Shown here in pieces: positions 8,517-62,343 of a stretch of DNA of 62,343 bases. The notes beneath the pieces are model-generated. The model did no database searches. It was not told where the DNA came from and was given only the letters and a program-made list of their open reading frames with translations. The stretch covers positions 1 to 62,343 of IMG/VR virus record IMGVR_UViG_3300037851_000300; one strand, 5' to 3'. This DNA comes from a virus. Lineage: Duplodnaviria; Caudoviricetes. The position numbers and the translations under genes were made by a program. Position 1 is the stretch's first letter, and every line of letters starts with the position of its first letter.

Positions 8517-9238
8517 AGTTTAGTTCGATAACAAATGTAATGAATGAAGAGGATATCCTATCTGGGTGTCTTAGTCTGCTTGATGTAGATTTTAAGATAG
8601 TGGTAATATCTGACACCACTCATTCTGGTCTATCTTATGTGCCAGATAATAGTGAGCAGATAGCCATAGATAGTGGCGCAATGGTTATTAGGGTAAAGAA
8701 CGTCGACGAGATAGGTATGAGAAATCTTGGCCTCGGTATGTCACTGGCATTGGGGGCTGATTATGCATTTATAGTAGACGCAGATGAGTACTATCCTAGA
8801 AAAACGCTTGAGAATTATAAGAAGTTTATAGAGCAAAATCCCTATTTATCATACAGAGCGAAAATGCTTGTTTCGTTTAGGCAACCCAACTGGGTGGTCC
8901 CTTGCCCCACCGACCATGGGAGTATCGTGGCTATTAGAACAGACCAAAGATTCAATCAACTTAGGTCGCATGGTGACAGCATATCGATTCCAGATGAACT
9001 CGGCACAATCTATCATATATCCTATGCTCGTTCAGCAAAGAAGATAGAGGAAAAGATGAAAAGTTTTTCCCATGCCAGTGAAGTATTGCCGAATTGGTTT
9101 AATGAAGTGTTCCTCCCTGCCACGCTAGAATCACACAACGTTCACCCAACATCCCCCTCTGTATGGCCAGACATAAAAGTGATAGAATTACCAGAAGAAG
9201 TTAAAGAAAAAATACCAAAGAACCTATGGCAAAAATAA
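8513..9238 (+). CDS. GT2-like glycosyltransferase
   Basis: RNLGL...FIVDADE DxD motif, HISYAR. Confidence 0.8.
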   Translation: MKFSSITNVMNEEDILSGCLSLLDVDFKIVVISDTTHSGLSYVPDNSEQIAIDSGAMVIRVKNVDEIGMRNLGLGMSLALGADYAFIVDADEYYPRKTLENYKKFIEQNPYLSYRAKMLVSFRQPNWVVPCPTDHGSIVAIRTDQRFNQLRSHGDSISIPDELGTIYHISYARSAKKIEEKMKSFSHASEVLPNWFNEVFLPATLESHNVHPTSPSVWPDIKVIELPEEVKEKIPKNLWQK

Positions 9239-9900
9239 GCGTAATAGTACCAATTTATGCGTTAGATGAAGAAATCATATCCTATGCAGTAAAATGCCTA
9301 GACTCTATAGGCGACCATGAGATTATTGTTGTAGATAATGGAGGGGCTGAAGAGGTTCTAAAACGCTCCAAGGCGAAGGTATCTATCACGATGTCACTCA
9401 ATGACAATGTGGGCTATGGTATGGCTATCAATATGGGTATGTCGGTTGCTACGGGAGACATACTTGTTGCCTTAAATGACGACGTAATCCTACCAGTGGG
9501 CTGGGAAAGGTTCACCGACATTCTCGTAGACCCCATGGTGGGAGTGGTAAGACCAGGAGAGCTGTCAGAACAGCCAGGGGGCTTGGTGGAAGACCATGCA
9601 TGGTATCATGGATTCTGTTGGGCTATAACCAGAGCTACCTATGAGAGGTTGAGCACTAAGAAGAATGGGCTTATGGACCCAAGGTTTGGACTCGGTTATT
9701 TTGAGGATTTAGACCTTTGGCACCGCATGAGGAAGCGACACCTCAAGATGATGAAAGACTTCAGGGTGAAGGTGTTCCATTATGGAGGATTAACCATACA
9801 CAAAATGGACCATTCTGAATTGCAAAAAATCAATGAACAAAAGTTCATAGAAAAACACAATCTCCCCAACTGGAAAGAAATATACTACCCATGGGAATAA
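9226..9900 (+). CDS. GT2 glycosyltransferase
   Basis: ISVIVP, VVDNG, NVGYG, LNDDV, GYFEDLD. Confidence 0.9.
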   Translation: MAKISVIVPIYALDEEIISYAVKCLDSIGDHEIIVVDNGGAEEVLKRSKAKVSITMSLNDNVGYGMAINMGMSVATGDILVALNDDVILPVGWERFTDILVDPMVGVVRPGELSEQPGGLVEDHAWYHGFCWAITRATYERLSTKKNGLMDPRFGLGYFEDLDLWHRMRKRHLKMMKDFRVKVFHYGGLTIHKMDHSELQKINEQKFIEKHNLPNWKEIYYPWE

Positions 9901-27206: not shown

Positions 27207-27398
27207 CTAAATTGCCACCAAAGGTTTAGTCTCCTGTAAATTGAATGTAGTCCTCAACTGCGCCCGACAGTTCTTACACCTCCAGACCTGATACTTGGTT
27301 GTTTTGTTACTATAAAATCCTTCTTTATTAAACCCTGTCTTACCACACTTCGGACAGACGTTTGCGATTCCACTTATGACTTCTGGCGATGTTATCCT
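27207..27398 (-). pseudogene. Start-less zinc-ribbon reading frame
   Basis: CPKCGK...YQVWRCKNC in frame directly after the TAG of 27399-27581. Confidence 0.5.
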
Positions 27399-27592
27399 CT
27401 ACTCAACCTCCCTTGTTACCTTAGTATCCTCACTCCCGCAGTGGATACAGACCTCTGGTCCCCGATAGTGCATCTTACAGACCAGACACCACCGCCATTC
27501 TTCTTTAGTCTTTACTGGCCACTTTTGGCTTTCTTCAAGGTCTATTTCTATTGTTTTTTCTGGCATGTTTTGCATTTGCAATCTTGTTTATG
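27378..27592. repeat. Direct repeat, copy 1 (matches 62129-62343)
   Basis: First 88 bp with several mismatches, then 127 bp identical. Confidence 0.97.
27399..27581 (-). CDS. Small zinc-finger protein (copy 1)
   Basis: CLVC..CIHC; differences from copy 2 are mostly synonymous. Confidence 0.7.
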   Translation of the reverse strand: MQMQNMPEKTIEIDLEESQKWPVKTKEEWRWCLVCKMHYRGPEVCIHCGSEDTKVTREVE

Positions 27593-27781: not shown

Positions 27782-28227
27782 CTTCTCTTATTTAAGCAGA
27801 CAGATTTATCACTTGTTAATTGTCAACTATTCATACCACCTCCGCCAGTCATAGCCGATTGAACTATGTTGGCTCTTAACCACTGGCGGAAGTGCGTGTA
27901 TTGTTTCGGCTTTCGCCTCCCACCTATCCGACACCCGAGCCTGATAGGCAACTCCGCTTCAATCATACGAAGGAATTGTTAATTATGACCTTGACCATGA
28001 CCCTGACAAGTAATTCGTACTATTATTCCAAAGTGTAGTAATCATACTATTTATTTATAGCCCTTAACGGAGGCAAGGCGATTATTTGTTTAACTGCTCT
28101 CTTGTAAATACTTCAAACCATTCTTTATGCAGACAAGTCCTATAACACTGGCTACACCTACCATCAACTATTATCGGGGCTAAACAGCAGTAGGACTTTA
28201 AGTTTTTGAACCAGTGTTGGAGGGTGT

Positions 28228-28548
28228 TCATAGGTTTTCTATTACTCCTGTCGCTTCCTCAATATCTATGAGGCAACGGCCATTTGTATCTTTGTGGACT
28301 ATTACATTTAACATTTCAACAATCCTCTCCCTCTCCTTCTTAACTGCTTCTTCTATGTCCTTCTTATAATCGGCCAGTAGTGATTTCTGATACTTAACCA
28401 TTTCTTCTTCTATGGCGTCCCGGATAAATGCTTTGACCGCCTGAACTGAACCCAACTTCCACGACTCGCCATCTTCAACCTTTCGCACAAACCTGTTATC
28501 AAACTCCTTCTCCCACCCCTCAGCTTTATCTGGCTGTTTTTTGTTCAT
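28228..28548 (-). CDS. Hypothetical protein
   Basis: WEKEFD...ERERI small phage ORF. Confidence 0.6.
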   Translation of the reverse strand: MNKKQPDKAEGWEKEFDNRFVRKVEDGESWKLGSVQAVKAFIRDAIEEEMVKYQKSLLADYKKDIEEAVKKERERIVEMLNVIVHKDTNGRCLIDIEEATGVIENL

Positions 28549-28559
28549 ATCATTGTGTC

Positions 28560-28763
28560 TTAGAAACCTTTCATTATGGCCTCCGTGAACTGCATTGTAA
28601 GACAGTAGGCGGAGGCTAAAGCAAAGAACGATATTGCTACGGCTATGGTTAGCTTGTCCATGAGGTCTAGTTTCGTCCGGCGTTCATCTCTGCGACACTC
28701 AGGACAGTTCTTTTTATATGGGCCTTGTATCCAGTTAATTTGGTTTAACATAGTTTTTGTCAT
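28560..28763 (-). CDS. Small membrane protein
   Basis: CPEC plus TM helix. Confidence 0.5.
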   Translation of the reverse strand: MTKTMLNQINWIQGPYKKNCPECRRDERRTKLDLMDKLTIAVAISFFALASAYCLTMQFTEAIMKGF

Positions 28764-28768
28764 TGGCG

Positions 28769-29227
28769 TTAATTAAAATAGTCCTGTAATTCTTTGAGCA
28801 ATCTTCTCATCTGCTCTAATTTATATCTCGGTATCCTATCCGGGGCCGGGATATTGTTCTTTTTAATCTCTAAGAGAGAATACATATCTCCAGCACTGAC
28901 CACAAAAAATACTTCTGGTCTTGCAAATGGACTGTCCGGATTACGGAATCCGAGGATAGTCATATCATTTGCTATGCCCTGTTCTTTTTTAAGATCGGCT
29001 ATCCATTCCGACATACTGTATGTTTTGGCGTTTTTCCACTCTATTGCCACGCCTATTGATGGTATCTGCTGGTCGCCCTTGTTCTTACCTTGTCCGGAGC
29101 CAACAACCTCATAAGTATTCGGATCTAAACTCTTGAAAAATTCTACACCCCACTTAACAAGCTCCCTCCCTTTTTGTCTTGTACTTGTCATATAAGTCGC
29201 GGAGAATAGCCGAGATGTTTGCGCCAT
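28769..29227 (-). CDS. PD-(D/E)xK Holliday junction resolvase-like nuclease
   Basis: QKGRELV, GSG..KGD, IEWKN. Confidence 0.65.
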   Translation of the reverse strand: MAQTSRLFSATYMTSTRQKGRELVKWGVEFFKSLDPNTYEVVGSGQGKNKGDQQIPSIGVAIEWKNAKTYSMSEWIADLKKEQGIANDMTILGFRNPDSPFARPEVFFVVSAGDMYSLLEIKKNNIPAPDRIPRYKLEQMRRLLKELQDYFN

Positions 29228-29508
29228 TCATTCTCATTGATTCTCCGGTTTTTAGCTATATTCCATTCTGTCGGCCAATAATATCCCTCTACATTGAACT
29301 TAGCCCTGATACGTTTGACACTGTCCTCTCTTGGCAATTCATATAAATCTTTTAGATATATCCCAACATCCTTGCCATTAGATGCCTGCTTGAGATATCT
29401 TGGATAATACTTCTTCCATATTTCAATCATCAAGGTTATATCGCTGTTCCTCGATTCCGGTACGGTTTTCAAGATATCTTCTACCTCATACTTCAGATTC
29501 TTAATCAT
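29188..29508 (-). CDS. Hypothetical DNA-binding protein
   Basis: PESRNSD..L, SVKRIRAKF. Confidence 0.55.
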   Translation of the reverse strand: MIKNLKYEVEDILKTVPESRNSDITLMIEIWKKYYPRYLKQASNGKDVGIYLKDLYELPREDSVKRIRAKFNVEGYYWPTEWNIAKNRRINENEWRKHLGYSPRLI

Positions 29509-29520
29509 ATCTATACAATT

Positions 29521-29595
29521 TTAATTGATATGACCAAAAATAAAAACCGATAAATCCCTTGTGGAATGTTCGGTTTTGATAGTTTGGTTTTCCAT
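29521..29595 (-). CDS. Leaderless 24-aa leader peptide MENQTIKTEH..., containing a hairpin
   Basis: ATG 7 nt after -10 TATAAT; AAAACCGA/TCGGTTTT stem. Confidence 0.4.
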   Translation of the reverse strand: MENQTIKTEHSTRDLSVFIFGHIN

Positions 29596-29601
29596 AACCT
29601 T

Positions 29602-29630
29602 ATTATATGACTATACAATTTTTATGTAAA
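29602..29630 (-). promoter_or_regulatory. Sigma70 promoter TTTACA-17-TATAAT with operator in the spacer
   Basis: Near-consensus boxes; AGTTATCAAC just upstream. Confidence 0.8.
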
Positions 29631-29638
29631 GTTGATAA

Positions 29639-30055
29639 CTATGATATCCCTTCCGGCATCGGAATACCAGTAAATATCTCAATCTTTTTAATATAAGCGG
29701 AGAAATCCGCCTTGTCCATATTAGTTGTGCTTTCCGGGCGCGTGAACTCAACTATCTTTCCGCCCGGCAATCTAACCTTATCCTGAACAGCATCCAACAA
29801 CTGACGCTTTAAGAACTCGTGCATACTGTCCATACGGTCTTTAGTTACTACACCATCACACTCCTCAACAATCGTCTTGATGTAATTCCAGTAATATGAA
29901 TTTTGCCGGATAGAACGGATGCTTTTTTTAGGGCCAATAGAAAATTCAACTTCTTTACCATTAAGTGTCCGGATATAATTATTCAGCTTCTCTATCTTGT
30001 ATGGAACAAACTTATTTGAAGCTACCCGGCCATAAAATTTTAATCTATCGTCCAT
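29639..30055 (-). CDS. NinB-like recombination protein
   Basis: RSIRQNSYYW, HEFLK, STTNMDKADFSAYI. Confidence 0.75.
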   Translation of the reverse strand: MDDRLKFYGRVASNKFVPYKIEKLNNYIRTLNGKEVEFSIGPKKSIRSIRQNSYYWNYIKTIVEECDGVVTKDRMDSMHEFLKRQLLDAVQDKVRLPGGKIVEFTRPESTTNMDKADFSAYIKKIEIFTGIPMPEGIS

Positions 30056-30464
30056 ATCTTTTTTGTTTAGTATTTAAGAATAATGAAACAACAGCCATCG
30101 GATGTAGGCAATTCTTTTTTTTGAGCCAATTTAATAAACTCACAGTTTCAAAGTTGGTATGAGAATTCCAATACACCCTTATTGCCATATAGACCTTCCG
30201 GATATGCTCTTCAAATTCAAGCGGGTCGGTGGTATCCCATTTTATATATGGCATATACGGATCTACTACCTCGTTAAAATATGTCTTGGCTTTCGTTTCT
30301 GGCTTCCTTATGGCTATCTTTTTTAAATACCCCGACCAATAATCATCGGATATCGGTCTGACAGGATGAGATAATTCTTTTTGTGTTATGCCACAACCGT
30401 TAAGACACACTCCCCCAACGAAGTTATGACCTAACATTTTGCCTTTGCAATTTTGGTTTTCCAT
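30045..30464 (-). CDS. Hypothetical protein (MENQNC start, Cys/His N-terminus)
   Basis: ORF downstream of the structured region; start reassigned to ATG 30464. Confidence 0.55.
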   Translation of the reverse strand: MENQNCKGKMLGHNFVGGVCLNGCGITQKELSHPVRPISDDYWSGYLKKIAIRKPETKAKTYFNEVVDPYMPYIKWDTTDPLEFEEHIRKVYMAIRVYWNSHTNFETVSLLNWLKKKNCLHPMAVVSLFLNTKQKRYGR

Positions 30465-30657
30465 ATTGATAATCTTAGGGCGAAGCCGGCACGGAGCTGG
30501 CCGTTTCACCGAGACTGGGAATGTCTATAATAAATATCCTTTAGTTTGAGTTACAAATGGGAGGGAATTTTTACTGTGCATAATGAACTGCTCCGCCCTA
30601 AAATTATCAAAGATTGCCCTTACCCATAATAAGCCGGGAACAATCAGATACTAGATT

Positions 30658-30912
30658 AAATAGCTTGCCTATCTCCTACCTCCCGGATGTCCTTTCTTCC
30701 CCCAAGAATCTTGTCTTGGGTCATAGGAAGTAAAACATCTAAGATAATTTTGCAAAAATTGATAATCTATTGAGGAGGGTATATCGGTTTGCGACTGCCT
30801 GATAGGTGCGCTAATAGGATATATGGTCGAACCCTCCCCCTCAATAGATATCAAAATGTAAATTATCTCATCCGGTATGGTTATCAATAGGGCAACTGCT
30901 GAACGTCTATTT
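30658..30912. ncRNA. Large nested stem-loop element (ncRNA or origin candidate)
   Basis: Nested IRs TTGCCTAT/ATAGGGCAA, CCGGATG/CATCCGG, CCCAAGA/TCTTGGG and a long ATCTATTGAGG/CCTCAATAGAT arm. Confidence 0.5.
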
Positions 30913-30964
30913 ATCGGATAAACTTCTTGCGAAGAAACGTGGGCGTTGCGAACCCTATCCTAAA

Positions 30965-31076
30965 GAAAAAACCCTTTGGACGTTCAGTCATAAGTTTTTT
31001 AGACTTATGATAGAACCGCCAAAAGGTTATTTTACCGATTCTATTTTTTTCTGAACGTCCAGAGATTTAATCTCTT
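30965..31076 (-). promoter_or_regulatory. Attenuator-like leader (terminator/antiterminator)
   Basis: AACCUUUUGG..UCAUAAGU/ACUUAUGA..CCAAAGGGUU + U tract competing with UGGACGUUCAG/CUGAACGUCCA. Confidence 0.6.
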
Positions 31077-31082
31077 GTGTAA

Positions 31083-31111
31083 ATCATACTATAAATGAAC
31101 ATAGCGCACAA
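31083..31111 (-). promoter_or_regulatory. Sigma70 promoter TTGTGC-17-TATGAT
   Basis: Correct spacing; AGTTATCCAC abuts the -35 box. Confidence 0.65.
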
Positions 31112-31120
31112 GTGGATAAC

Positions 31121-31384
31121 TCAAGCCACCTTAGATTTAGATAGCGCCTTGATTTCCTTGATATCTTCGGCGTTATATATATCCCAGCAATCAAATAGGT
31201 TGCAGTAATCCATAAGCTTGCGAGCCATATTCGGGGTAAGTATTCTGTATGAACTATGGCCGAGATTATATGCCTCCTGAACTACCTCCAATACCTGTTC
31301 TGGGGCGAACAGCTTTACATCCGCCAGATAGATTGATAGTGGTAATACTTGCGGAAGGAATACTCTTTGTTCAGATGTTGTCAT
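31121..31384 (-). CDS. Hypothetical protein
   Basis: Coupled ORF. Confidence 0.55.
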   Translation of the reverse strand: MTTSEQRVFLPQVLPLSIYLADVKLFAPEQVLEVVQEAYNLGHSSYRILTPNMARKLMDYCNLFDCWDIYNAEDIKEIKALSKSKVA

Positions 31385-31986
31385 TGTTTTAAGTTTATTT
31401 CTTTTATACGGTTTATTATGCCTTCTTGCGCTTGCTCAATGCGTTTTTTCATCTCTATAAGTTGGAGGATGTTTCTTTCAGTTCTGAATGAATATATGTT
31501 ATATCCACCATCCGTTGAGATATGATCGAGCCACATCTCTTTTGGTACTTTACCGGTATTGAGCCATATCATCAGGGCATAGAAGGTTATCTGTCCGAAT
31601 GAATCAACTTTTATCTGTGTCCATTTAGTGCGCCCTGTCTTATATTCCCGGAACCTTCCATCCTCATAAGTGTCTATCTTCCCATACAGTTTTATCTTTC
31701 CTATCTTTGCGCTTATCTCCTTCTCGCTATACTTGTATCTTGGCAAGAATACCTTGCAGAAGTTTATGAGCGGGTCGTCTGAATCAAGGTTATTCTCCAT
31801 TACATCCGCAAACTCTTTACCAAACTCCATAGCATCGCTTACAATACCCTTCTCTCCGAACACATAGCGCCTTATGTATTCATCCTGATCTGATTCCCAA
31901 AGATTAAGCTGTGTCCAAGAGATATACGGCCGGGGAAGCTTAACTCTTTTTTGTTTGCTTTTGGATTTGCGCATTGATGAGGTCAT
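31381..31986 (-). CDS. PD-(D/E)xK (RecB/Cas4-like) exonuclease
   Basis: ISWTQL, FGKEF, GKID, EYKTG, QITFYA. Confidence 0.85.
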   Translation of the reverse strand: MTSSMRKSKSKQKRVKLPRPYISWTQLNLWESDQDEYIRRYVFGEKGIVSDAMEFGKEFADVMENNLDSDDPLINFCKVFLPRYKYSEKEISAKIGKIKLYGKIDTYEDGRFREYKTGRTKWTQIKVDSFGQITFYALMIWLNTGKVPKEMWLDHISTDGGYNIYSFRTERNILQLIEMKKRIEQAQEGIINRIKEINLKQ

Positions 31987-32575
31987 TCAGAATCTTCTTA
32001 TCTTTAATACTGATGGCACTGTTTTTGTTGATTCTGGTTTTCCATTCCACAAGTAACTGCGAATCGTGTTCATCTTCAATTAGTTGTTTAGAGCGTTCCA
32101 CCATTTCAGACATCTCCTTCTTTTTATCTTCCACAACTTGCTTATCTTTCTTAGTGGCTCCGTCAAGCTGATTCCAATATACATCAAGAGCTATACCGAA
32201 TAGCGTGGCGCATTTCTTCAGGGCATCAGTAGAAGCCGCTTTGTAGGTATCTCCCACCGGCACGCCTTCATTCCTATCTGCTTGTCCGTATTGTTCCTTT
32301 GATATCGCGAATCCCTGAACGTGATCTTTTATGGTAAGCGTTCCCTTCACAAAAACCTCCTTGTCGGTTTCCTTCTGATCCGACAATGTAAATTGCCAAT
32401 TAAGAGGCCCGAACACATTGTTCAATTTAGCCACAACATACCCTCCCTCCACATACCTAAATACTCTATTACCCCTACCCTTACGCTCTTTTATGAACTG
32501 TTCCGGGGTCTGGGCGCTTATTACCAACTGCTGTTCTCTGTTCAACGATATGAGTGATAAAGATTTTGTTTTCAT
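31940..32575 (-). CDS. sak: Rad52/Sak-family single-strand annealing protein
   Basis: GRGNRVFRYVEG, LNNVFG, YKAASTDALKKCATLFGI. Confidence 0.85.
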   Translation of the reverse strand: MKTKSLSLISLNREQQLVISAQTPEQFIKERKGRGNRVFRYVEGGYVVAKLNNVFGPLNWQFTLSDQKETDKEVFVKGTLTIKDHVQGFAISKEQYGQADRNEGVPVGDTYKAASTDALKKCATLFGIALDVYWNQLDGATKKDKQVVEDKKKEMSEMVERSKQLIEDEHDSQLLVEWKTRINKNSAISIKDKKILNDLINAQIQKQTKKS

Positions 32576-32577
32576 AT

Positions 32578-33156
32578 TTAGCGTCCGACAACTGTTTTGG
32601 TTATTACTCGCACTCCGGGTACATTCACATTTTCTTTGAGTACATCATTCCTTAACATCACCATATCAAGCATCCAGTATTCTTTTGGTATAACTCCGGT
32701 ATCAACTATTTCTATATCTCGGACGTGTCTGATATTTGAATGTTCTGCTTCTGGAGCTTTTTCTATGGCTTCAACTTTCCTTACAACGGTTTCAACTCTC
32801 TTTATCTTTCCTTCTTCAAACTGCTTCTGCACCTTCGTAGCTTCTTCTCTGGCCTTGCGCTCTTTTTCTGTGTAGTATCTCTCCATCTTTGACTTCACTT
32901 CCGTATCGGCTTGGGCTAAAGCATCCTCGGCCGGCTTCCATCTGTTCCTCTCGGCTTCAACTGCTTCCTTCAACGGAGCAAGAACTTTGTCCTTCTCCTG
33001 CTTGATGGCCTTCTGAAAAGTAAAGACCTGCTTTCTGAATACTGAAGCTTCCTGATATGTAGCGTCATCATTGACCTGCATATTGGTTGCTACTTCAAGA
33101 GCTTTTGTAGCTCTCTTTGGCGCTGTGTCCGCCGTTACTGTCAATTCCTTTGACAT
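32578..33156 (-). CDS. Coiled-coil recombination-module protein (Gp157/Gam-like)
   Basis: Long coiled-coil, IPKEYW and VPGVR C-terminus; next to Sak. Confidence 0.55.
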   Translation of the reverse strand: MSKELTVTADTAPKRATKALEVATNMQVNDDATYQEASVFRKQVFTFQKAIKQEKDKVLAPLKEAVEAERNRWKPAEDALAQADTEVKSKMERYYTEKERKAREEATKVQKQFEEGKIKRVETVVRKVEAIEKAPEAEHSNIRHVRDIEIVDTGVIPKEYWMLDMVMLRNDVLKENVNVPGVRVITKTVVGR

Positions 33157-33184
33157 TGTGCTTTTCCTCCGGGTATGCTATTAT
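33156..33184 (+). promoter_or_regulatory. Antisense promoter TTGTGC-17-TATTAT with extended -10 TG
   Basis: Points against gene flow into a terminator hairpin. Confidence 0.65.
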
Positions 33185-33189
33185 GTAAA

Positions 33190-33240
33190 TGGTTTTCCAT
33201 AATAACGGCTCCGAAAGGGGCTGTTTATTATTTACTTTTT
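33190..33240 (+). ncRNA. Candidate ~50-nt antisense sRNA
   Basis: Promoter, 5' UGGUUUUCC seed, GAAA-tetraloop stem with G-U pairs on + strand, U-rich end. Confidence 0.6.
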
Positions 33241-33411
33241 GTTCCGGGGTGAATCAGTACCACGAACAATCTGCTGAACTCTGGCTCTGGTTATTTTACC
33301 AAAGCCATCACGCTCTAACTGTTCAATTATTTCAGAGAGAGAATATACTCCGCTCCTCCATAATTTCCTGATGTGCTGATTGCGCACCGGATACTTTTCT
33401 TTCTTTACCAT
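33232..33411 (-). CDS. Small HTH transcription regulator (59 aa), leaderless
   Basis: Own translation ...YSLSEII...GKITRARVQQIV; ATG 7 nt after TAAAAT. Confidence 0.8.
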   Translation of the reverse strand: MVKKEKYPVRNQHIRKLWRSGVYSLSEIIEQLERDGFGKITRARVQQIVRGTDSPRNKK

Positions 33412-33417
33412 ACTGAT

Positions 33418-33445
33418 ATTTTACTCCTTTGAATTGTATAGTCAA
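33418..33445 (-). promoter_or_regulatory. Promoter TTGACT-16-TAAAAT overlapped by operator TGACTATACAATT
   Basis: The same 13-mer occurs inverted at 29608-29620. Confidence 0.7.
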
Positions 33446-33506
33446 GAGATACAAAAAATGGCTTATTTCAAGCCATTTTATTGTGCTTATTGTATAGTTA
33501 TCAACA

Positions 33507-36500
33507 TCAGTCCATATTGTCTTTTAATAACTTATACGCCTTATATTCCTGATCCGATAGTTTATTAAGAATAGCTTTCGCTTCCTGATATCTTCCTTCT
33601 TCAAGAAGTTTCTGTATCTCAATATATTTAGGATAGACGATTTTTTTCGCCTCCTGCGTTTTCGCTCTCTTAGCTGATGAGGACAGTGTCTTATATATCT
33701 CGTAGTCAGATTCACTTAATCCTTCGAGCAAGCGCCGGGCTTCAAGTTCGTTGCCCTGATTCCTTAACTCCTGTATCTGTTTGAATACTGGCTCAACTTT
33801 TCTCCTTGCCTCCGCCCGCTTCTTAACTTGTTCGGCAAGAGCGTCAAAGTATTTCTGTGTATCTATCTGGGATTTGGTCTTAAATTTAATCGGAAACTCT
33901 AACGCTTCCAGAGCAGATTGCACCGGGTTCTTTTTATACTGGAAGTCCTTATCCCATAGGGGCTTGAGTACGCGATTATATAGTTCAGTCATATACGGAT
34001 GATTGGATTGCAATCCTACATACTCCGCAATTTTGCCGATTTTGGTCTTGCCCTCGTCTGTTTCCTTATATATTTGTCTGCCAAAGTAATCCTTATTGGC
34101 TATCACCTCGGACACTATCTTCACCGGCATTGAGAATAGCGATCCGAATTTCTGTTCCGCAGTTGAGATATCACCCTTGCCAAGAGCTATGAACCCGGAA
34201 CCGAGATTGCGTGGTAGGGATAATATAGACGGCAAGAGAGCGACATAGGCCGCATCTCCATTTGGCAAGGGAGCTTTAAGCTCAAACTCCTTTCCCGGCT
34301 CATTGTCCCACATATAGTTCCCGGTCAATTTTCTATTCAAGTAATTATATAGGGCATAGGATAGGACGGCTCCGGCGGCAAAACGTCTGTTCAGCTTAAA
34401 CGCCGGATTACGGAATTCAGTTGTCAGAGACTTAGCCGTATTGAATAGCATATTGATTATGCCTTCCCTGAATTTTGGAGCAAAGAACATTGTTGTAAGA
34501 ACATCTTGAGATAGTTTAGACCTTGCAAGGTTATCAGATAGACCATAGAAGGCCTTGACCGTATCCCCAGCCAGTTGCTTTGCTTGTCCTTCCGGCAAAC
34601 CTTTCTTTAGAGCTGATTTGTATGTCCGCTCAAAAGCATCAACATATAGTTGAGGCATAAATGAGGCAAATGTCTTTTCGTTGAAAAGCTTGTCAAAAGA
34701 TTCCCCGGCAAGTTCTGTCATCTTCTTATTCGCCACCAGATTCTTATATACCTTATCCAAGCTTCCTACCCTATGGCTTACATCAATACCCTCCTCCGCC
34801 ATCATCTTTAGATACGGAGCTTTTTCGGTGAAGTATTTTATAGTTGATGAATTGAAGTTGGCCCGGACAAATGGAATAACAGCTCTCGGATTAAACGAGG
34901 ACAGCTCTTTAAGAAACTGCCCGAACACAAAGAAGTTGATTGAAGATTTTGGAACACCAGCCGATAATCTCAATTCTTGGACAAAACGGTTAGTCCAAGC
35001 TCCGGTGGAGAATACCTTATCCAAAAACCCTAAGTCCTCCTCTTTTCTAAATATACCGTTTAGGGCATTGGCTACCTCTGGAGTGGCTGAATACTTTTCA
35101 TTGGCAAAGGGAAGATTAAGCGGCTTGAATGAATCCGGCGCCAACTCTGTCGGGAACACCTTACCTGCCTCAACAAGATTTGTCATAAATTTCTTGTTAG
35201 CAATCGTCTTTTCCATCTCACCACGATAGTATGCGATGAGCTGTGCCGGATTGGTGTATTTAGGATTAAGTCCGAATTTGATGGCCGTTTCATAATCCGG
35301 GAATGTCCTCTCCTTACTGAATGAAGGATTTATTTTAAGCCGTGCCGCCACATCACCCGGCAAAGTCCCATTACCGCTTATATACGCGTCAATAGCATCG
35401 TCTGATACATTGTTCTCGCGCATATATTTTACTATGGCCGCCTTTATTTCTTCGGCGCTCTCTTTATATACCTGCGGCAAATAATTCTGCCAGTAATTCA
35501 CGGTAAGACCTCTCTTATTCGCTTCACGGAACATAGAATCAAAAGCATCTTTGATTGCCTGATTGTATGGCGTATTCTCCCCGGCCTGATACTTCTTTAT
35601 AATCTCCCACCCTTCCTTCTCTGGTATCTTATACTTTGCGATTTCTGCATTGGCAAATTCTTTGGCGGACAGAATCTCTTTAGTCCAGTCAGAATATATC
35701 TTGCGGGATTTATCGTCCATATACTTCGCTGGAGCTAAGAATTCTTTTAGCTTCTGAAACATACCGGTATTCTTTGCCGGACGGCCCATAGCCACTTCGT
35801 CAAGTTTTGCGGTAATGGTTTTGAGATACTGCTGATATTCTTCGGCCCTCTGCGCATTTCTTACGCCGGCATCAAAGATGGCCTCCTCCGGCTTATATAT
35901 CTCTTGTTTTGGTAATTCAGGAATGGCCCCGGTCTTGCTATTGAACATCTGAATCTCCTTATTTATCCGTTCTATTGTCTTTTCAGAATACTCTTTGATC
36001 TTACTGCCTATTTTATATTCCGGGGTTGATTTCAAAAGCTGAAGCTCCGCTTTTAATGCCTTAAATTCCCTTCTCTTGATTGCAAACTGTTCGTATATCT
36101 CTCCAAGCTCATTGGCATCTTCTGGATATTGAGGATAGATAGAATGGAACTCTTGGGCTATCTGATCGCCCTCTCTCATCCATATCGTTCGCCCCTTACC
36201 AAGTCCGCCTTCCCCGAGTTTTCCTTCACGCTTATTAGCATATTTATCCAAGCGTTTTAATGGATTGTCGGCCAGATACTCTTCAAGTGCCTCCACTTCT
36301 CTTTGCAAGTTTGGGATGTCTTTAACGTTCCGTATTGCTCCAAGAGCAAGCACACCAGCTCCGGCCTTTAGGGGATTGAATTGTATTTTACCGTCATCAT
36401 CTACTTCTACGCCGGCAACGGCTCCAAATGCTTCCTTTTTTCCTACTTTTCTAAGAGCTTCTAATCTTGATGCCTCACTACCCTTTTTGTATTTAACGAT

Positions 36501-38900
36501 AGATATTCCATGATTTTTAAGGTTGTCTATGGTTTCTAATGATGTTCCTTCTGGGACTACCGCATACTTGAATCTGCTTATTCCTATCGGTTTTCTGAAT
36601 TTAGTTTCAAAATACTCCGTAGGCATCTCAATTATCTCCTTTTTTAATTTTAGAAGGTCGTTAATAACATCTTCTGTTATACCTTTGGGTAGATATTGTC
36701 TTTCGCCGGTAACAAGAAACTCACTCACCCCTGCCGCCACTTGGTCGTTATGTATAAATCTGTTTGAATTTTCAGAAGCCGGATTGAATTCCAAGACCTT
36801 ATCTATCACACCTTCATACCTTTTCCACATATCATCCTTAACTTTCTCGAATTCATCGCTCGGTAAAACATAATTTTTGAGAGAACTTTTAATCTTTTTC
36901 TCTCCGCTAATTGTCGGAACCAGTTTAGCCCTCAACGACGGTAAGCCATAATCAAAACCCTCTCCCGCCCTTACGCCTCTACTGTTCATTATCTTTGAAG
37001 CATTTTCAAGAGTATTCGGCTTATATACCGGTCGGCCCATGTAGGTATTGTGGGAGTATATCTTCTCCTCTACGTTAAATTTACCCAATATGTCTTGGAT
37101 ATAGTTATCAAACTTAGCTTGAAGCTTATTTTTCTGTATGATATCCCGGAACTTGCTAAGCGTTCTATATTCGGCTATCGTTCCATCCGCCTCTTTGACA
37201 ATAGGGTATTTTATTCCATTCTTATCAAAGAAATCAGCCATAGCCAAAGACGAATTATCTAAGCTGCTCTGGACTACCCTGTCAAGGTCAAGATTCGTGG
37301 CCCTTGCACCAACAATCGGTTCGTACTTTTTATAGTATTCTATCAACCTATCCTTATCCTCTCGCTTCATTATCTGCACCGTTGAGGGATATCTCGGAGT
37401 ATATACATCGGATCTGAATGTTCTTCCCTCGGATAAAATATCTTTCGGAGCAACGAGTGTTATATCTCCATATCCTGTAACGTGTGCCTTGTTCAAATCG
37501 GCGACAGCCATTGACGGATTCGCCAGCCCGCCTTTCTTTATAGCGAAATTTAGCTTACTTTCCGTAAGGTTATGCGTTACGATAGCGGACTTATCTAATG
37601 GTTTCAGCTTTGGATTAACAATCTGCTTCTTCAAGACCGTTAGATAATTCCTTACACCTTCGGGATTATTTATCTTTGATATATCTCCCGATGCCTTACC
37701 TAACAGCTCACCCGATACACCGGCTTTTTTAAGCAGTTTAGAAATTACTCCGGGGTCGGTTTCTTTTACCAACAGATTCACAAGATTCTTACCACCCCCG
37801 GCTTCAAAATTGAAATACTGCTCCAAAGCAGTTGCACCGACAGCCAAAGGTAAAGCTGACTTGCCTACATACGGCCTAAATAGTTGTTCTCTTTCTGCGA
37901 CACTTGTCACCGTACTCTTGATAGGTTCTTCACCGAATATGGACTTACCAATTTTAGATTGTCCGAATTCTGTCTTGGTAATATCCTGCCGACCCTGTTC
38001 ATCAATAAAAGCTTTAAGGGCTTTTACCGGGGATAATGTCCTTCCGAAAGTTTCAGCTCCCGACCCTATACCAGTGGCAAGCTCTGATATGGCCGTCCCG
38101 GGGCCTGCACCGGCCTGTATTGTCCAACGAGCTACATCCTTCACTAAAGGGCTAAAAGTCCTCGCCTCGGCCAATCTTGAAGCATCCGGAAGACCATAGG
38201 GCTTGGCTTCCTTATACACCTGCCTTGTTTTGGCTATATCCACCCCAGTTACATATCGGACAATGTTATTTATCTTATCACCCAATATAGGCAAGCGGTT
38301 CACGCCTTTATCACTTAGGATAGATGATGCGGATGCTTGAGATGTCTTGGCGGGTTCAAATGAAACAGATAAATTTTTTGTAGGAGCTACATACTTTTCT
38401 CTATCGGCGTTAAATCCTTCTATCTGTGCGATAGTTTCGGCAATCTTTGATAACCTATCCTCCGGTGTATTGAGAGAAAAAGGAGTTATAAATTCAGATA
38501 TCTTCGCTTTTGGAGATATGCCGGATATATCCTGTATCATTCGGACATATTGTGCCGTATTGTTGTTGTCCGATGCTGGAGCATAGACATTTACGAAATC
38601 TTTTATGTTCCACTCCGGATTATTCTTTACTTTGCTTAGAATATCGTTTCGTAATGCCTTCATACCAGAATCAGTGCTATCAAATTTAGCCCAATACAAA
38701 GGACTGCCGTTGTTATATCCCTTTAGCTCCCCCCTTGTGGCACCTTCTTGGCCCATAAAAATTAGGTTGCCGGGATTATTATGACGCTGTGAGATATTGC
38801 CGGTAGGTTTTACGGATGCCAAAGACGGCTTTTTTGCTATGTCCTGTTGAGCAGGCGTTGGCTTGCTGAAGATGTTTTGTAGAGTTGTTAAGATTGACAT
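33507..38900 (-). CDS. Giant polyvalent ejection protein with N-terminal muramidase-like domain
   Basis: RHNNPGNL..F...G..AL...YAPASDNNNT..Y; 1797 aa; last gene of the virion operon. Confidence 0.75.
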   Translation of the reverse strand: MSILTTLQNIFSKPTPAQQDIAKKPSLASVKPTGNISQRHNNPGNLIFMGQEGATRGELKGYNNGSPLYWAKFDSTDSGMKALRNDILSKVKNNPEWNIKDFVNVYAPASDNNNTAQYVRMIQDISGISPKAKISEFITPFSLNTPEDRLSKIAETIAQIEGFNADREKYVAPTKNLSVSFEPAKTSQASASSILSDKGVNRLPILGDKINNIVRYVTGVDIAKTRQVYKEAKPYGLPDASRLAEARTFSPLVKDVARWTIQAGAGPGTAISELATGIGSGAETFGRTLSPVKALKAFIDEQGRQDITKTEFGQSKIGKSIFGEEPIKSTVTSVAEREQLFRPYVGKSALPLAVGATALEQYFNFEAGGGKNLVNLLVKETDPGVISKLLKKAGVSGELLGKASGDISKINNPEGVRNYLTVLKKQIVNPKLKPLDKSAIVTHNLTESKLNFAIKKGGLANPSMAVADLNKAHVTGYGDITLVAPKDILSEGRTFRSDVYTPRYPSTVQIMKREDKDRLIEYYKKYEPIVGARATNLDLDRVVQSSLDNSSLAMADFFDKNGIKYPIVKEADGTIAEYRTLSKFRDIIQKNKLQAKFDNYIQDILGKFNVEEKIYSHNTYMGRPVYKPNTLENASKIMNSRGVRAGEGFDYGLPSLRAKLVPTISGEKKIKSSLKNYVLPSDEFEKVKDDMWKRYEGVIDKVLEFNPASENSNRFIHNDQVAAGVSEFLVTGERQYLPKGITEDVINDLLKLKKEIIEMPTEYFETKFRKPIGISRFKYAVVPEGTSLETIDNLKNHGISIVKYKKGSEASRLEALRKVGKKEAFGAVAGVEVDDDGKIQFNPLKAGAGVLALGAIRNVKDIPNLQREVEALEEYLADNPLKRLDKYANKREGKLGEGGLGKGRTIWMREGDQIAQEFHSIYPQYPEDANELGEIYEQFAIKRREFKALKAELQLLKSTPEYKIGSKIKEYSEKTIERINKEIQMFNSKTGAIPELPKQEIYKPEEAIFDAGVRNAQRAEEYQQYLKTITAKLDEVAMGRPAKNTGMFQKLKEFLAPAKYMDDKSRKIYSDWTKEILSAKEFANAEIAKYKIPEKEGWEIIKKYQAGENTPYNQAIKDAFDSMFREANKRGLTVNYWQNYLPQVYKESAEEIKAAIVKYMRENNVSDDAIDAYISGNGTLPGDVAARLKINPSFSKERTFPDYETAIKFGLNPKYTNPAQLIAYYRGEMEKTIANKKFMTNLVEAGKVFPTELAPDSFKPLNLPFANEKYSATPEVANALNGIFRKEEDLGFLDKVFSTGAWTNRFVQELRLSAGVPKSSINFFVFGQFLKELSSFNPRAVIPFVRANFNSSTIKYFTEKAPYLKMMAEEGIDVSHRVGSLDKVYKNLVANKKMTELAGESFDKLFNEKTFASFMPQLYVDAFERTYKSALKKGLPEGQAKQLAGDTVKAFYGLSDNLARSKLSQDVLTTMFFAPKFREGIINMLFNTAKSLTTEFRNPAFKLNRRFAAGAVLSYALYNYLNRKLTGNYMWDNEPGKEFELKAPLPNGDAAYVALLPSILSLPRNLGSGFIALGKGDISTAEQKFGSLFSMPVKIVSEVIANKDYFGRQIYKETDEGKTKIGKIAEYVGLQSNHPYMTELYNRVLKPLWDKDFQYKKNPVQSALEALEFPIKFKTKSQIDTQKYFDALAEQVKKRAEARRKVEPVFKQIQELRNQGNELEARRLLEGLSESDYEIYKTLSSSAKRAKTQEAKKIVYPKYIEIQKLLEEGRYQEAKAILNKLSDQEYKAYKLLKDNMD

Positions 38901-62128: not shown

Positions 62129-62343
62129 GACTTCTGGCGATGTTATCCTCTACTCAACCTCCCTCGTTACCTTCGTCTCCTCACTCCCGCAGTGGATACA
62201 GACCTCTGGCCCTCTGTAGTGCATCTTACAGACCAGACACCACCGCCATTCTTCTTTAGTCTTTACTGGCCACTTTTGGCTTTCTTCAAGGTCTATTTCT
62301 ATTGTTTTTTCTGGCATGTTTTGCATTTGCAATCTTGTTTATG
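62129..62343. repeat. Direct repeat, copy 2 (window end)
   Basis: Offset 34,751 from copy 1. Confidence 0.97.
62150..62332 (-). CDS. Small zinc-finger protein (copy 2)
   Basis: 59/60 identical to 27399-27581. Confidence 0.7.
   Translation of the reverse strand: MQMQNMPEKTIEIDLEESQKWPVKTKEEWRWCLVCKMHYRGPEVCIHCGSEETKVTREVE

Follow-up and report, generated by a model that had tools for sequence, protein, structure and literature searches.

The DNA analyzed here, referred to as the window, is the complete 62,343-nt record of an uncultured freshwater phage belonging to the Caudoviricetes (IMGVR_UViG_3300037851_000300). At the locus of interest, a 59-aa gene precedes a set of recombination genes encoding a 192-aa protein, a Rad52-like annealing protein and a PD-(D/E)XK nuclease, and the same strand carries a 139-aa Cys/His-rich gene and a 106-aa gene with its own upstream promoter (Table 1). 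Searches of Pfam and PHROGs returned no family for the 59-aa, 139-aa, 87-aa or 106-aa proteins. The predicted structure of the 59-aa product comprises three helices (pLDDT 79), and its best Foldseek matches are DNA-binding domains, with E values of 0.4 at best and none at E<=0.001. Nearby lies a conserved, structured non-coding region of approximately 650 nt, which may merit as much attention as the antisense locus, or more.

Table 1. Coordinates of genes, predicted regulatory elements and motif sites discussed in the text
Feature	Position	Strand	Details
Terminator-like hairpin with U tail, between site 3 and the 106-aa gene	29536..29577	-	-12.2 kcal/mol, z -2.8
Site 3, TTATGGAAAACCA	29585..29597	-	4 nt downstream of the -10 box of the region's strongest promoter (transcript 5' end)
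Promoter upstream of site 3 and the 106-aa gene	29602..29630	-	TTTACA-17-TATAAT; 11/12, best in 6 kb
139-aa Cys/His-rich gene	30045-30464	-	Start at site 2
Site 2, ATATGGAAAACCA	30454..30466	-	Across the start codon of the 139-aa gene
Site 4, ATGGAAAACCA	32035..32045	-	Inside the Rad52-like gene, out of frame (codons E-W-K-T)
192-aa gene	32578..33156	-	ORF; first gene downstream of the locus
Predicted small-RNA promoter, sigma-70-like	33150..33184	+	Scan and reading of the sequence
Predicted single-stranded 5' part of the RNA	33187..33203	+	Contains the seed TGGTTTTCCATAA (33190-33202)
Site 1, TTATGGAAAACCA, perfect cis target	33190..33202	-	On the transcript from the 59-aa gene into the recombination genes
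Terminator-like hairpin with T-rich tail	33204..33240	+	Intrinsic-terminator pattern
59-aa gene	33232..33411	-	Just upstream of site 1; three-helix, helix-turn-helix-like product
Promoter of the 59-aa gene	33418..33445	-	TTGACT-16-TAAAAT; conserved, 10/12 in both genomes

Comparative evidence comes from one informative relative, a single IMG/VR contig that was the sole one found across all searches. Protein and alignment scans of viral contigs, searches of metagenome and genome contigs, and DNA-pattern searches yielded no relative beyond this same contig. Word-indexed protein searches returned one and two proteins, and an additional DNA-pattern match (L009) proved to be an unrelated terminator, with a lysis-type gene on one side and a tail-type gene on the other. 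A HMMER search with an alignment of the 139-aa protein recovered 45 relatives, among which, besides the query's own P0002, only two were full length with E <1e-20. A third phage, approximately 90-95% identical, was detected in a sediment run; it has 22 differences from the window in 33155-33600, four of which are not itemised, and no listed difference over 33155-33256. In the informative relative, the 59-aa protein is 63% identical, and the locus sits at a mosaic border, downstream of which the recombination genes are either 22-25% identical or truncated, and the only counterpart of the 192-aa protein is the product of a 69-aa gene homologous to its C-terminal 48 residues alone. A motif located in promoter spacers switches as a set between the two phages, from ATTGTATAG in the window to ATTGTAAAG in the relative. 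The promoter ahead of the 106-aa gene has a counterpart there (TTAACA-17-TAAAAT). The relative lacks the hairpin at 29536..29577, which might act as an attenuator of the leader or else terminate a sense RNA of approximately 60 nt bearing the perfect target of the seed.

On the plus strand, the initial annotation had placed a promoter driving an RNA of approximately 50 nt that ends in a GAAA-loop hairpin, cis-antisense to the leader of the recombination operon. The unit is located as described, antisense to the interval separating the 59-aa gene from the first recombination gene, and promoter scanning, strand-specific folding and conservation bear out its components; the transcript itself is a prediction. 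The scan detected TTGACA (33150-33155) and TATGCT (33174-33179) separated by 18 nt (10/12), and reading of the sequence offers an alternative, an extended -10 element, TGcTATTAT, at 33176-33184 with TTGTGC 17 nt upstream. Promoter spacing predicts a transcription start at approximately 33187-33192. The promoter overlaps the Shine-Dalgarno sequence (33166-33170) and start codon (33154-33156) of the 192-aa gene on the opposite strand. At the other end of the unit, nine pairs capped by a GAAA loop form the hairpin (33204-33225), with TATTATTTAC next to it downstream; the T tail extends over the 59-aa gene's stop codon (33232-33234). The plus strand folds at -16.6 kcal/mol (z -3.7), a value matched in none of 200 shuffles, versus -7.6 kcal/mol (z -1.2) for the sense strand of the locus. 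The hairpin's G-U pairs and GAAA loop exist only on the plus strand; the sense strand has two A-C mismatches in their place and no U tail. We also considered two open reading frames at this position and rejected both. A 60-aa plus-strand frame (33189-33371) stops after four codons in the relative, and a potential leader peptide at site 1 spans 19 codons in the window versus 6 in the relative and is not conserved.

The relative keeps the promoter, the hairpin and the seed. Its antisense promoter, TTGATA-17-TATTAT with TG (10/12), ranks within the top three promoter-like sites of 4.1 kb, its antisense terminator is also among the top-scoring sites in that interval, and the -10 palindrome is equally far from the ATG in both genomes. 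Across 16 predicted pairs of the hairpin, the two genomes differ by one compensatory and two one-sided (G-U/A-U) changes, with no pair broken, and the relative's plus strand again folds better than its sense strand (-19.1 kcal/mol, z -4.3, versus -8.9 kcal/mol). The 75-nt locus is 83% identical, so that in this one relative conservation of seed and terminator exceeds the background of 62-67% in the neighboring coding sequences; the other two intergenic stretches are 26-50% identical. The seed is identical save for one inserted base. Because folding is strand specific, G-U pairs are involved, and promoter, hairpin and seed are conserved in one relative, a discrete plus-strand unit is favored.

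The seed belongs to a repeated motif. As the initial annotation had stated, the 13-mer TGGTTTTCCATAA at 33190-33202 recurs exactly at 29585-29597 (13/13) and, over 12 of 12 positions with the thirteenth base different, at 30454-30465. On the minus strand, these copies do coincide with start codons, at 30464 for the 139-aa gene and at 29595 for a 24-codon ORF, the latter not conserved in the relative. The count was an understatement, as a fourth exact copy of the 11-mer TGGTTTTCCAT (plus strand) at 32035-32045 had been overlooked. The four copies, starting at 29585, 30454, 32035 and 33190, share one orientation and lie inside 3.6 kb; on the minus, mRNA strand they read ATGGAAAACCA. Only two 11-mers in the 62-kb window have four exact copies, and TGGTTTTCCAT is one of them. 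In order-2 Markov simulations, some 11-mer occurred four times anywhere in 16 of 200 runs, and none of the 200 contained any 11-mer four times within 4 kb. Allowing up to one mismatch, TGGTTTTCCATAA has 3 matches against 0.13 expected, a number reached in 1 of 100 shuffles. The recurrence of the motif is real and non-random. It does not reflect a general start context, an idea ruled out by the six occurrences of ATGGAAAA on the minus strand of the window and zero on the plus strand.

The phage's own predicted transcripts thus contain four copies of 11-13 nt complementary to the seed, one in cis and three in trans, and these rank near the top of 31,160 windows by predicted duplex energy: site 1 is first (-21.2 kcal/mol), site 3 second (-18.9), site 2 fourth (-17.0) and site 4 fifth (-15.9). 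A G-U-rich site at 9577-9600 (plus strand) outranks two of them. Site 2 lacks an upstream Shine-Dalgarno sequence and is predicted to be nearly unpaired in its local fold. The start codon it spans is corroborated by three homologues of the 139-aa protein (P0003, P0004 and P0005), which begin at the equivalent position, upstream of a conserved Cys. Sites 2 and 3 have 14 nt in common, more than either shares with site 1, a likeness that a common sense-strand motif could explain equally well. Two further candidate pairings were discarded: a long-range pairing of site 2 with 30876-30895, which direct reading shows to be lost in the relative, and an 11-nt complementarity between the leader hairpin loop (29558-29568) and 32043-32053, beside site 4, of which a rough estimate expects a few by chance in 5.5 kb.

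The base inserted in the relative's seed permits a check of seed-target covariation, within this single pair of genomes, and the outcome is divided. Site 2 tracks the changed seed: the start of the relative's 138-aa homologue matches its 14-mer at 13 of 14 positions and is the only copy with at most one mismatch on either strand of 18 kb, an agreement reproduced in 4 of 300 simulations. The one difference falls at the inserted base and leaves a central C-U mismatch. Site 3 does not follow, as it pairs better with the window's seed (-14.7 kcal/mol) than with the relative's own (-10.9 kcal/mol). By duplex energy, the relative's site 2 ranks fourth among 11,968 windows, with two unrelated sites placed above it. 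The predicted advantage of the cognate seed falls from 3.8 kcal/mol in the window to 1.0 kcal/mol in the relative (-15.2 kcal/mol cognate versus -14.2 kcal/mol non-cognate). In these models, the energetic specificity of trans pairing is weak.

We infer from the sequence the production of the RNA, its start position and every regulatory effect set out here. The plus-strand unit is probably a new phage countertranscript that resembles sar in its layout and c4 and CI in having several targets, and its features suggest that one small RNA controls several phage genes. In the reading we prefer, to which we give somewhat less than an even chance, a countertranscript of approximately 50 nt with a 5' seed acts in cis on read-through into the recombination genes and in trans on distant sites. 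The plus-strand gene between the 59-aa gene and the recombination genes would yield a non-coding RNA of approximately 45-55 nt, starting near 33187-33192 and ending at the GAAA-loop terminator around 33235-33240, with its first 12-17 nt essentially unpaired and serving as the seed. In cis, this RNA would be fully complementary to transcripts running from the 59-aa gene into the recombination genes, for which the promoter at 33418..33445 would be the source. At the first recombination gene, the ribosome-binding site and ATG lie beneath the small-RNA promoter, and therefore the two directions of transcription should interfere; the RNA duplex would additionally mark the read-through mRNA for cleavage. 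Because its own promoter occupies that position, the RNA itself would leave this ribosome-binding site uncovered.

In trans, the seed would pair with AUGGAAAACCA at three places. The best supported is the start codon of the 139-aa gene, where initiation would be blocked, and trans control of this gene is plausible on sequence grounds. A weaker candidate is the 5' end of the leader transcribed from the strong promoter at 29630-29602, and a possible third is the internal site in the Rad52-like mRNA. If true, a primary transcript with a 5' seed, acting in cis and on distant start codons, would extend seed-type small-RNA regulons to phage genomes beyond the model systems. The locus would also constitute a compact test case, with a 50-nt RNA, a 12-nt seed and three candidate targets, and is small enough for a heterologous host.

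Several other readings accommodate part of these data. The RNA might act only in cis, a real convergent countertranscript that relies on transcriptional interference and cleavage of the duplex to damp read-through from the 59-aa gene into the recombination genes, with the other motif copies having other causes. The promoter-terminator unit supports this reading exactly as it does the preferred one, trans specificity is weak in the relative and site 3 does not follow the seed, and the classic phage countertranscripts sar and OOP act on overlapping mRNA (PMC12197685). We nevertheless regard it as unlikely: it leaves unexplained the four exact same-strand copies within 3.6 kb (0/200 simulations) and the likeness of sites 1 and 2 after both have changed. 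About equally unlikely, in our estimate, is that ATGGAAAACCA is read by a phage or host protein, either as the DNA palindrome TGG-N4/5-CCA or as a tiny sense-RNA hairpin. Site 1 would then be just one of four, with the neighboring helix-turn-helix-like 59-aa protein, given its predicted three-helix, DNA-binding-like fold, as the obvious candidate reader. The evidence from the relative counts against the preferred reading here and fits a hairpin or palindrome read by a protein as well: sites 1 and 2 keep ATGG...CCAT, and because these arms persist while the center lengthens from 4 to 5 bases and differs at one central base, the pattern is the one that two arms and a spacer should produce. In addition, sites 1 and 3 adjoin -10 boxes. 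Sites 2 and 4, however, are not at promoters, all four copies in the window have the asymmetric center AAAA in one orientation, and three of the four lack the full CCAT arm. The spacer motif ATTGTATAG/ATTGTAAAG already fits an operator role better and is the better candidate for a protein operator, and a protein site would leave the strand-specific hairpin and the promoter around site 1 without explanation.

We consider it improbable that no plus-strand RNA is made at all. The hairpin would then be an ordinary, possibly two-way, terminator after the 59-aa gene, TATTAT would belong to a sense promoter for the recombination genes, and the repeats would reflect shared ancestry of short N-terminal "MEN" starts or linkers at module borders. 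In the window, the hairpin does share sequence with a sense promoter-like TAAACA-17-TATTAT (9/12). Three ORFs located at the sites begin with MEN, and the locus lies at a mosaic border. But the sense hairpin, with its two A-C mismatches and no U tail, folds no better than shuffles (z -1.2), and the sense -35 element is lost in the relative, where the scan lists no sense promoter, in contrast to an improved antisense one. Neither the ORF at site 1 nor that at site 3 is conserved, and identities of 12-14 nt are too short and too exact for protein-level ancestry, with site 4 out of frame.

A more elaborate possibility, to which we assign a low probability, is an RNA-based circuit of an undescribed kind that unites a cis- and trans-acting countertranscript, a start codon locked in an RNA of approximately 650 nt and a decoy sense RNA. 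Here, the start codon of the 139-aa gene would also lie in the closing helix of the conserved, ornate RNA of approximately 650 nt upstream, and the strong promoter elsewhere would give a short sense RNA that stops at a terminator; containing the perfect target of the seed, this RNA may serve as a decoy. Together, the three RNAs would set the timing of the recombination and early genes, beside a separate protein operator.

The preferred cis- and trans-acting countertranscript resembles several characterized systems in part. The initial annotation did not recognize the RNA as P1 C4 or P4 CI, and the searches agree: a scan of 28000-35000 against Rfam 15 gave no matches at E<=1, a scan of the whole window gave none at the gathering score, and the relative's region gave only two miRNA-type chance matches elsewhere, far below threshold. 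Because there is no Rfam match at E<=1, the RNA is not a member of the c4/CI family, and the Rfam sar model likewise has no match at E<=1. In P22, sar occupies the arc-ant spacer. It is a short primary countertranscript (68/69 nt, immI) whose pairing interferes with translation initiation (PMC12197685). The arrangement here shares with sar a convergent promoter, in the interval that separates a very small regulator gene from its neighbor, and an intrinsic terminator, both predicted in two genomes. Whereas sar is complementary to the adjacent ant translation start, the RNA here is predicted to begin at least 16 nt upstream of the adjacent Shine-Dalgarno sequence, and its start-codon matches lie 2.7 and 3.6 kb away; unlike the sar setting, the window has no lysogeny or antirepressor genes among the proteins scanned.

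With c4 and CI, the shared feature is a single small phage RNA to which transcripts of the same phage offer two or more short complementary sites, here judged by sequence. The c4 RNA is processed from a longer transcript. In the ant operon, c4 anneals in the neighborhood of the ribosome-binding site; the pairing partners of CI are seqA and seqC (PMC12197685, PMC4825925). P4 CI is likewise cut from a longer transcript, has its targets upstream and downstream on that transcript and acts by premature transcription termination (PMC4825925). By contrast, the RNA proposed here has its own predicted promoter, lies on the strand opposite all of its targets and carries its seed at the 5' end rather than in loop sequences, and, unlike those of CI, its targets are on other transcription units. 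Lambda OOP (77 nt), likewise a short antisense RNA with a terminator at its end, comes from the early region of its phage, overlaps the end of a regulatory gene located upstream and acts by duplex-dependent cleavage of the sense mRNA (PMC12197685, PMC5415839). OOP, however, overlaps the cII 3' end extensively and has no known trans sites, whereas here the T tail alone reaches the stop codon of the 59-aa gene.

Site 3 invites a further comparison, being located at the 5' end of a leader with a terminator before the gene. In the countertranscript-driven attenuation of plasmids pT181 and pIP501, an antisense RNA binds the leader and shifts it towards termination. RNAIII/repR of pIP501 is tabulated in PMC5415839. 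Unlike in those plasmids, the antisense RNA here would be encoded 3.6 kb away rather than opposite the leader, and the leader terminator is absent in the relative. To our knowledge, phage antisense RNAs directed at the phage's own genes come from only a handful of enteric model phages, and those we know to hit several sites, c4 and CI, are processed immunity RNAs.

The initial annotation had reported repeats of a short sequence at 29585 (13/13) and 30454 (12/12), and a sequence search bore this out: the 13-mer TGGTTTTCCATAA occurs in full at both 29585 and 33190, and the copy at 30454 keeps 12 bases of the 13. All three positions were correct; what had been overlooked was that the 11-mer core recurs exactly a fourth time, at 32035, out of frame in the interior of the Rad52-like gene. 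The observation is confirmed and extended. The four copies share one strand, lie no more than 3.6 kb apart, and read ATGGAAAACCA on the mRNA (minus) strand. When the window was simulated 200 times with an order-2 Markov model, four copies of some 11-mer arose in 16 simulations and fell within 4 kb in none. Because ATGGAAAA is scarce in the window (minus strand 6, plus strand 0), the motif is not the phage's usual gene-start context. The core is one of two 11-mers with four copies in the window; the sole other at four exact copies, AATATATCCAT (15336, 19488, 20012, 59874 (+)), is dispersed and unclustered.

The window, 62,343 bases long, covers an entire IMG/VR virus record, which is linear and an estimated 77% complete; the window sequence is contained in DNA runs from metagenomes labelled freshwater and sediment. 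Scans of the whole window found neither a tRNA nor, at gathering score, an Rfam family. The late block ends with a gene for a 1,797-aa protein (33507–38900, minus) whose residues 437–554 match a nuclease domain, PBECR5 (Barnase/EndoU/colicin-like); the protein seems to be a large, polyvalent component of the virion. Several common 11- to 12-mers at a constant offset of ~34,751 nt point to a direct repeat of ~190 nt (about 27390–27585 versus 62140–62336) shared between the strand-switch region and the record's 3′ end; either a terminal repeat or duplication of the end of a gene might account for it.

Features of the window and of the related contig (window coordinates unless marked relative)
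Feature	Position	Strand	Basis or remark
Late genes	62 kb down to 33.5 kb	minus	large terminase, major head protein, LysM/transglycosylase protein
Two-way hairpin ending late block	33455–33479		hairpin scan
59-aa gene promoter, TTGACT-16-TAAAAT	33445–33418	minus	promoter scan
59-aa gene	33411–33232	minus	
75-nt spacer carrying small-RNA locus	between 59-aa and 192-aa genes		
Predicted antisense promoter, TTGACA-18-TATGCT	33150–33179	+	scan, 10/12
Extended −10, TGcTATTAT	33176–33184	+	by reading sequence
Hairpin, 9 pairs, GAAA loop, then T-rich run	33204–33225	+	scan
192-aa gene	first gene after spacer	minus	
Rad52-like annealing protein	after 192-aa gene	minus	Pfam E 1e-10
PD-(D/E)XK nuclease, weak match	same block	minus	E about 1e-3, under Pfam cut-off
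87-aa ORF, then ~650 nt without ORF	upstream of 139-aa gene	minus	
139-aa Cys/His-rich gene, then NinB-like gene		minus	
Second strong promoter, TTTACA-17-TATAAT	between NinB-like and 106-aa genes	minus	11/12
106-aa gene	after second strong promoter	minus	weak RusA-like match (PHROG E 0.0025)
Site 1 (cis)	33190	minus	duplex −21.2 kcal/mol
Site 3	29585	minus	duplex −18.9 kcal/mol
G-U-rich site inside 224-aa ORF 9226–9900	9577–9600	+	duplex −17.8 kcal/mol, third best
Site 2	30454	minus	duplex −17.0 kcal/mol
Site 4	32035	minus	duplex −15.9 kcal/mol
ATTGTATAG or complement	33433–33441, 33489–33497, 29511–29519, 29611–29619; also 21991		
Relative antisense promoter, TTGATA-17-TATTAT	relative 2541–2513	opposite	blind scan, 10/12
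Relative terminator, 13 pairs, GAAA loop	relative 2495–2466		3′ of antisense promoter

Both a + strand promoter and a terminator with a GAAA loop, as the annotation had proposed, were predicted by scan, and the strand-specific fold agrees. The + strand RNA (33187–33240) folds at −16.6 kcal/mol (z −3.7, equalled by 0 of 200 shuffles) and the sense strand at −7.6 kcal/mol (z −1.2, 29 of 200), a difference that arises because two G-U pairs of the + strand stem would turn into A-C mismatches in the sense transcript. The sense strand likewise lacks a U run downstream of the stem. A 60-aa + strand ORF spanning the locus was rejected as a coding gene; it is not conserved in the relative.

Our search for further related genomes found one, IMG/VR contig 3300045741_000098 (loci L004–L008), which is collinear with the window (identity 63% for the 59-aa protein, 58% for the 139-aa protein, and 64% for the NinB-like protein). 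The spacer is the region's best-conserved DNA at 83% identity, with coding sequence at 62–67% and the other two intergenic stretches at 26–50%. We ran a promoter scan of the relative blind over 4.1 kb, and the three promoter-like sites that scored highest (10/12, every one with TG) are homologous to the three in the window, namely that of the 59-aa gene, that ahead of the 104/106-aa gene, and the antisense promoter on the opposite strand. The same scan found no sense promoter at the homologous spot, and direct reading shows that the −35 of the sense promoter at the locus is lost in the relative. The relative's RNA folds at −19.1 kcal/mol on the antisense strand (z −4.3) and −8.9 on the sense strand; in the 16-pair hairpin consensus, one pair had both bases replaced (C-G to U-A), two had a single base replaced (G-U/A-U), and none was broken. 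A third phage, ~90–95% identical, exists as contigs in a sediment run; it has 22 differences across 33155–33600, and none of the 18 itemised falls within 33155–33256. These comparisons give good support to a predicted + strand RNA gene. A conserved small antisense RNA gene likely occupies the locus, and the predicted RNA is probably made.

A mosaic border falls exactly at the small-RNA locus: the 59-aa, 139-aa, and NinB-like proteins are 58–64% identical, and the recombination genes between (31381–33156 versus L004 2541–4066) are replaced or very distant, with annealing protein and nuclease at 22–25% identity. The relative's first gene after the locus encodes 69 aa, whose homology to the 192-aa protein is confined to the latter's C-terminal 48 residues.

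We scanned the 17-nt 5′ part of the RNA, which includes the predicted single-stranded seed, against both strands (31,160 windows; mean duplex energy −5.0, sd 2.2 kcal/mol). The + strand site within the 224-aa ORF probably represents a scoring off-target. Site 2 is the real start of the 139-aa gene, as three homologues of its product (P0003, P0004, and P0005) begin there with a conserved Cys downstream; it lacks a Shine-Dalgarno and is almost unpaired in the predicted local fold. Site 3 lies 4 nt past the −10 box of the second strong promoter and is therefore at the 5′ end of that transcript. Between site 3 and the 106-aa gene is a terminator-like hairpin (29577–29543, minus) with a U tail. The second strong promoter is the strongest in the region, and this hairpin follows it within ~60 nt; the stretch concerned (29536–29598, minus) could be either a leader subject to attenuation or a distinct short sense RNA bearing the seed's perfect target. 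The relative has no leader terminator after site 3. The leader hairpin loop (29558–29568) has an 11-nt perfect complement at 32043–32053, abutting site 4 in the Rad52-like mRNA; by our own rough estimate, chance alone would yield a few matches of this sort in 5.5 kb.

In the relative the seed is one base longer (ATGGAAAGACCAT), and the 138-aa gene starts with ATGGAAATACCAT, which matches the seed 14-mer at 13 of 14 positions, the preceding T included. Three nucleotide changes, altering two codons, separate site 2 of the two phages. Across 18 kb of both strands, the relative's site 2 is the sole copy with at most one mismatch, and such a copy occurred anywhere in 4 of 300 simulated sequences. 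The duplex energy of this site ranks 4 of 11,968 windows, surpassed by two unrelated internal sites as well as by the cis site. Match, scarcity, and rank together argue that the likeness of sites 1 and 2 was kept while both changed. Three observations weigh against a straightforward interpretation. The single mismatch is mid-duplex. The cognate seed gains only 1.0 kcal/mol at the relative's target (−15.2 versus −14.2 for the window seed), compared with 3.8 at the window's site 2 (−17.0 versus −13.2). The relative's site 3 lies on the 104-aa gene start codon and retains the sequence of the window type, and its duplex with the relative's own seed is weak (−10.9 kcal/mol). The seed/target covariation check that the annotation had suggested, applied here to one comparison, is therefore positive for site 2 and negative for site 3, and its claim that a single RNA would silence three units is not established.

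The likeliest interpretation is a countertranscript that acts in two ways. In cis, the RNA's promoter would overlie the 192-aa gene's Shine-Dalgarno and ATG, opposing transcription that starts at the promoter of the 59-aa gene. The small RNA itself would be complementary to the spacer of the read-through transcript and not to the ribosome-binding site, so interference and duplex-dependent cleavage would be expected, not direct occlusion. In trans, the 5′ seed would cover the AUG and next three codons of the 139-aa gene and block initiation, and pairing at the extreme 5′ end of the 29630-promoter transcript could alter stability or terminator choice; alternatively, a short terminated RNA from this promoter could serve as a decoy that draws off the seed. 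Control of the 139-aa gene in trans is plausible, with somewhat less than an even chance, and action in cis only remains a rival, as does the absence of any + strand RNA. Recognition of the repeated motif by a protein also remains, and the relative's ATGG/CCAT arms, kept around a variable centre, speak for it; however, the four window copies share an identical asymmetric centre and one orientation, and another motif, ATTGTATAG, is the better operator candidate.

Four of the five window copies of ATTGTATAG lie in the 29.5–33.5 kb control region, two of them within promoter spacers, and all homologous copies in the relative have switched to ATTGTAAAG (three copies; L004 about 2255, 5844, 5899). 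The pair is a candidate protein operator that covaries between the two phages and may serve the 59-aa helix-turn-helix-like protein, whose predicted model has three helices (pLDDT 79); its best structural matches were DNA-binding domains, none significant (best E 0.4). The spacers are those of the 59-aa- and 106-aa-gene promoters; the motif or its complement also adjoins two further control sites. A 12-nt perfect inverted pair, ATAGTTATCAAC (29631–29642 and 33494–33505), lies upstream of both sense promoters, and a kindred AGTTATC(C/A)AC block starts the 650-nt region in both phages (about 31095–31115); we take these to resemble a DnaA box.

The ORF-free stretch 30465–31120 (minus) is conserved in the relative (L004 4350–5000). 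Its consensus fold has 141 pairs at −128.4 kcal/mol, 29 of them changed on both sides and one broken, against −38.6 ± 5.1 kcal/mol and 13.3 ± 3.3 two-sided changes (maximum 21) in 30 column-shuffled alignments; the reverse strand of the alignment folds at −115.5 kcal/mol. The predicted closing helix pairs 31095–31083 with 30477–30463, including the AUGGA of site 2. No Rfam family matched the stretch in the window or the relative. The stretch is a candidate for a new phage RNA, large and structured, or for a structured leader, and it merits separate study; the large ornate RNAs already known are GOLLD, ROOL, and OLE (PMC12286853).

The small RNA falls outside the known families (sar, c4/CI, and OOP) on their defining tests, because it has no Rfam match (window at gathering score, region scan, and the relative's region), has its own predicted opposite-strand promoter, unlike RNAs processed from the target transcript, and is not complementary to the ribosome-binding site of the neighbouring gene. 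A search of open-access text yielded no described phage RNA combining these features. The annotation's view that the RNA is c4/CI-like in concept yet neither of the two holds, with several targets present and no Rfam match. P22 sar is nearest in layout (PMC12197685), P1/P7 c4 and P4 CI are nearest in having several short targets among the phage's own transcripts (PMC12197685, PMC4825925), and lambda OOP shares the overlap with the end of a small regulator gene (PMC12197685, PMC5415839).
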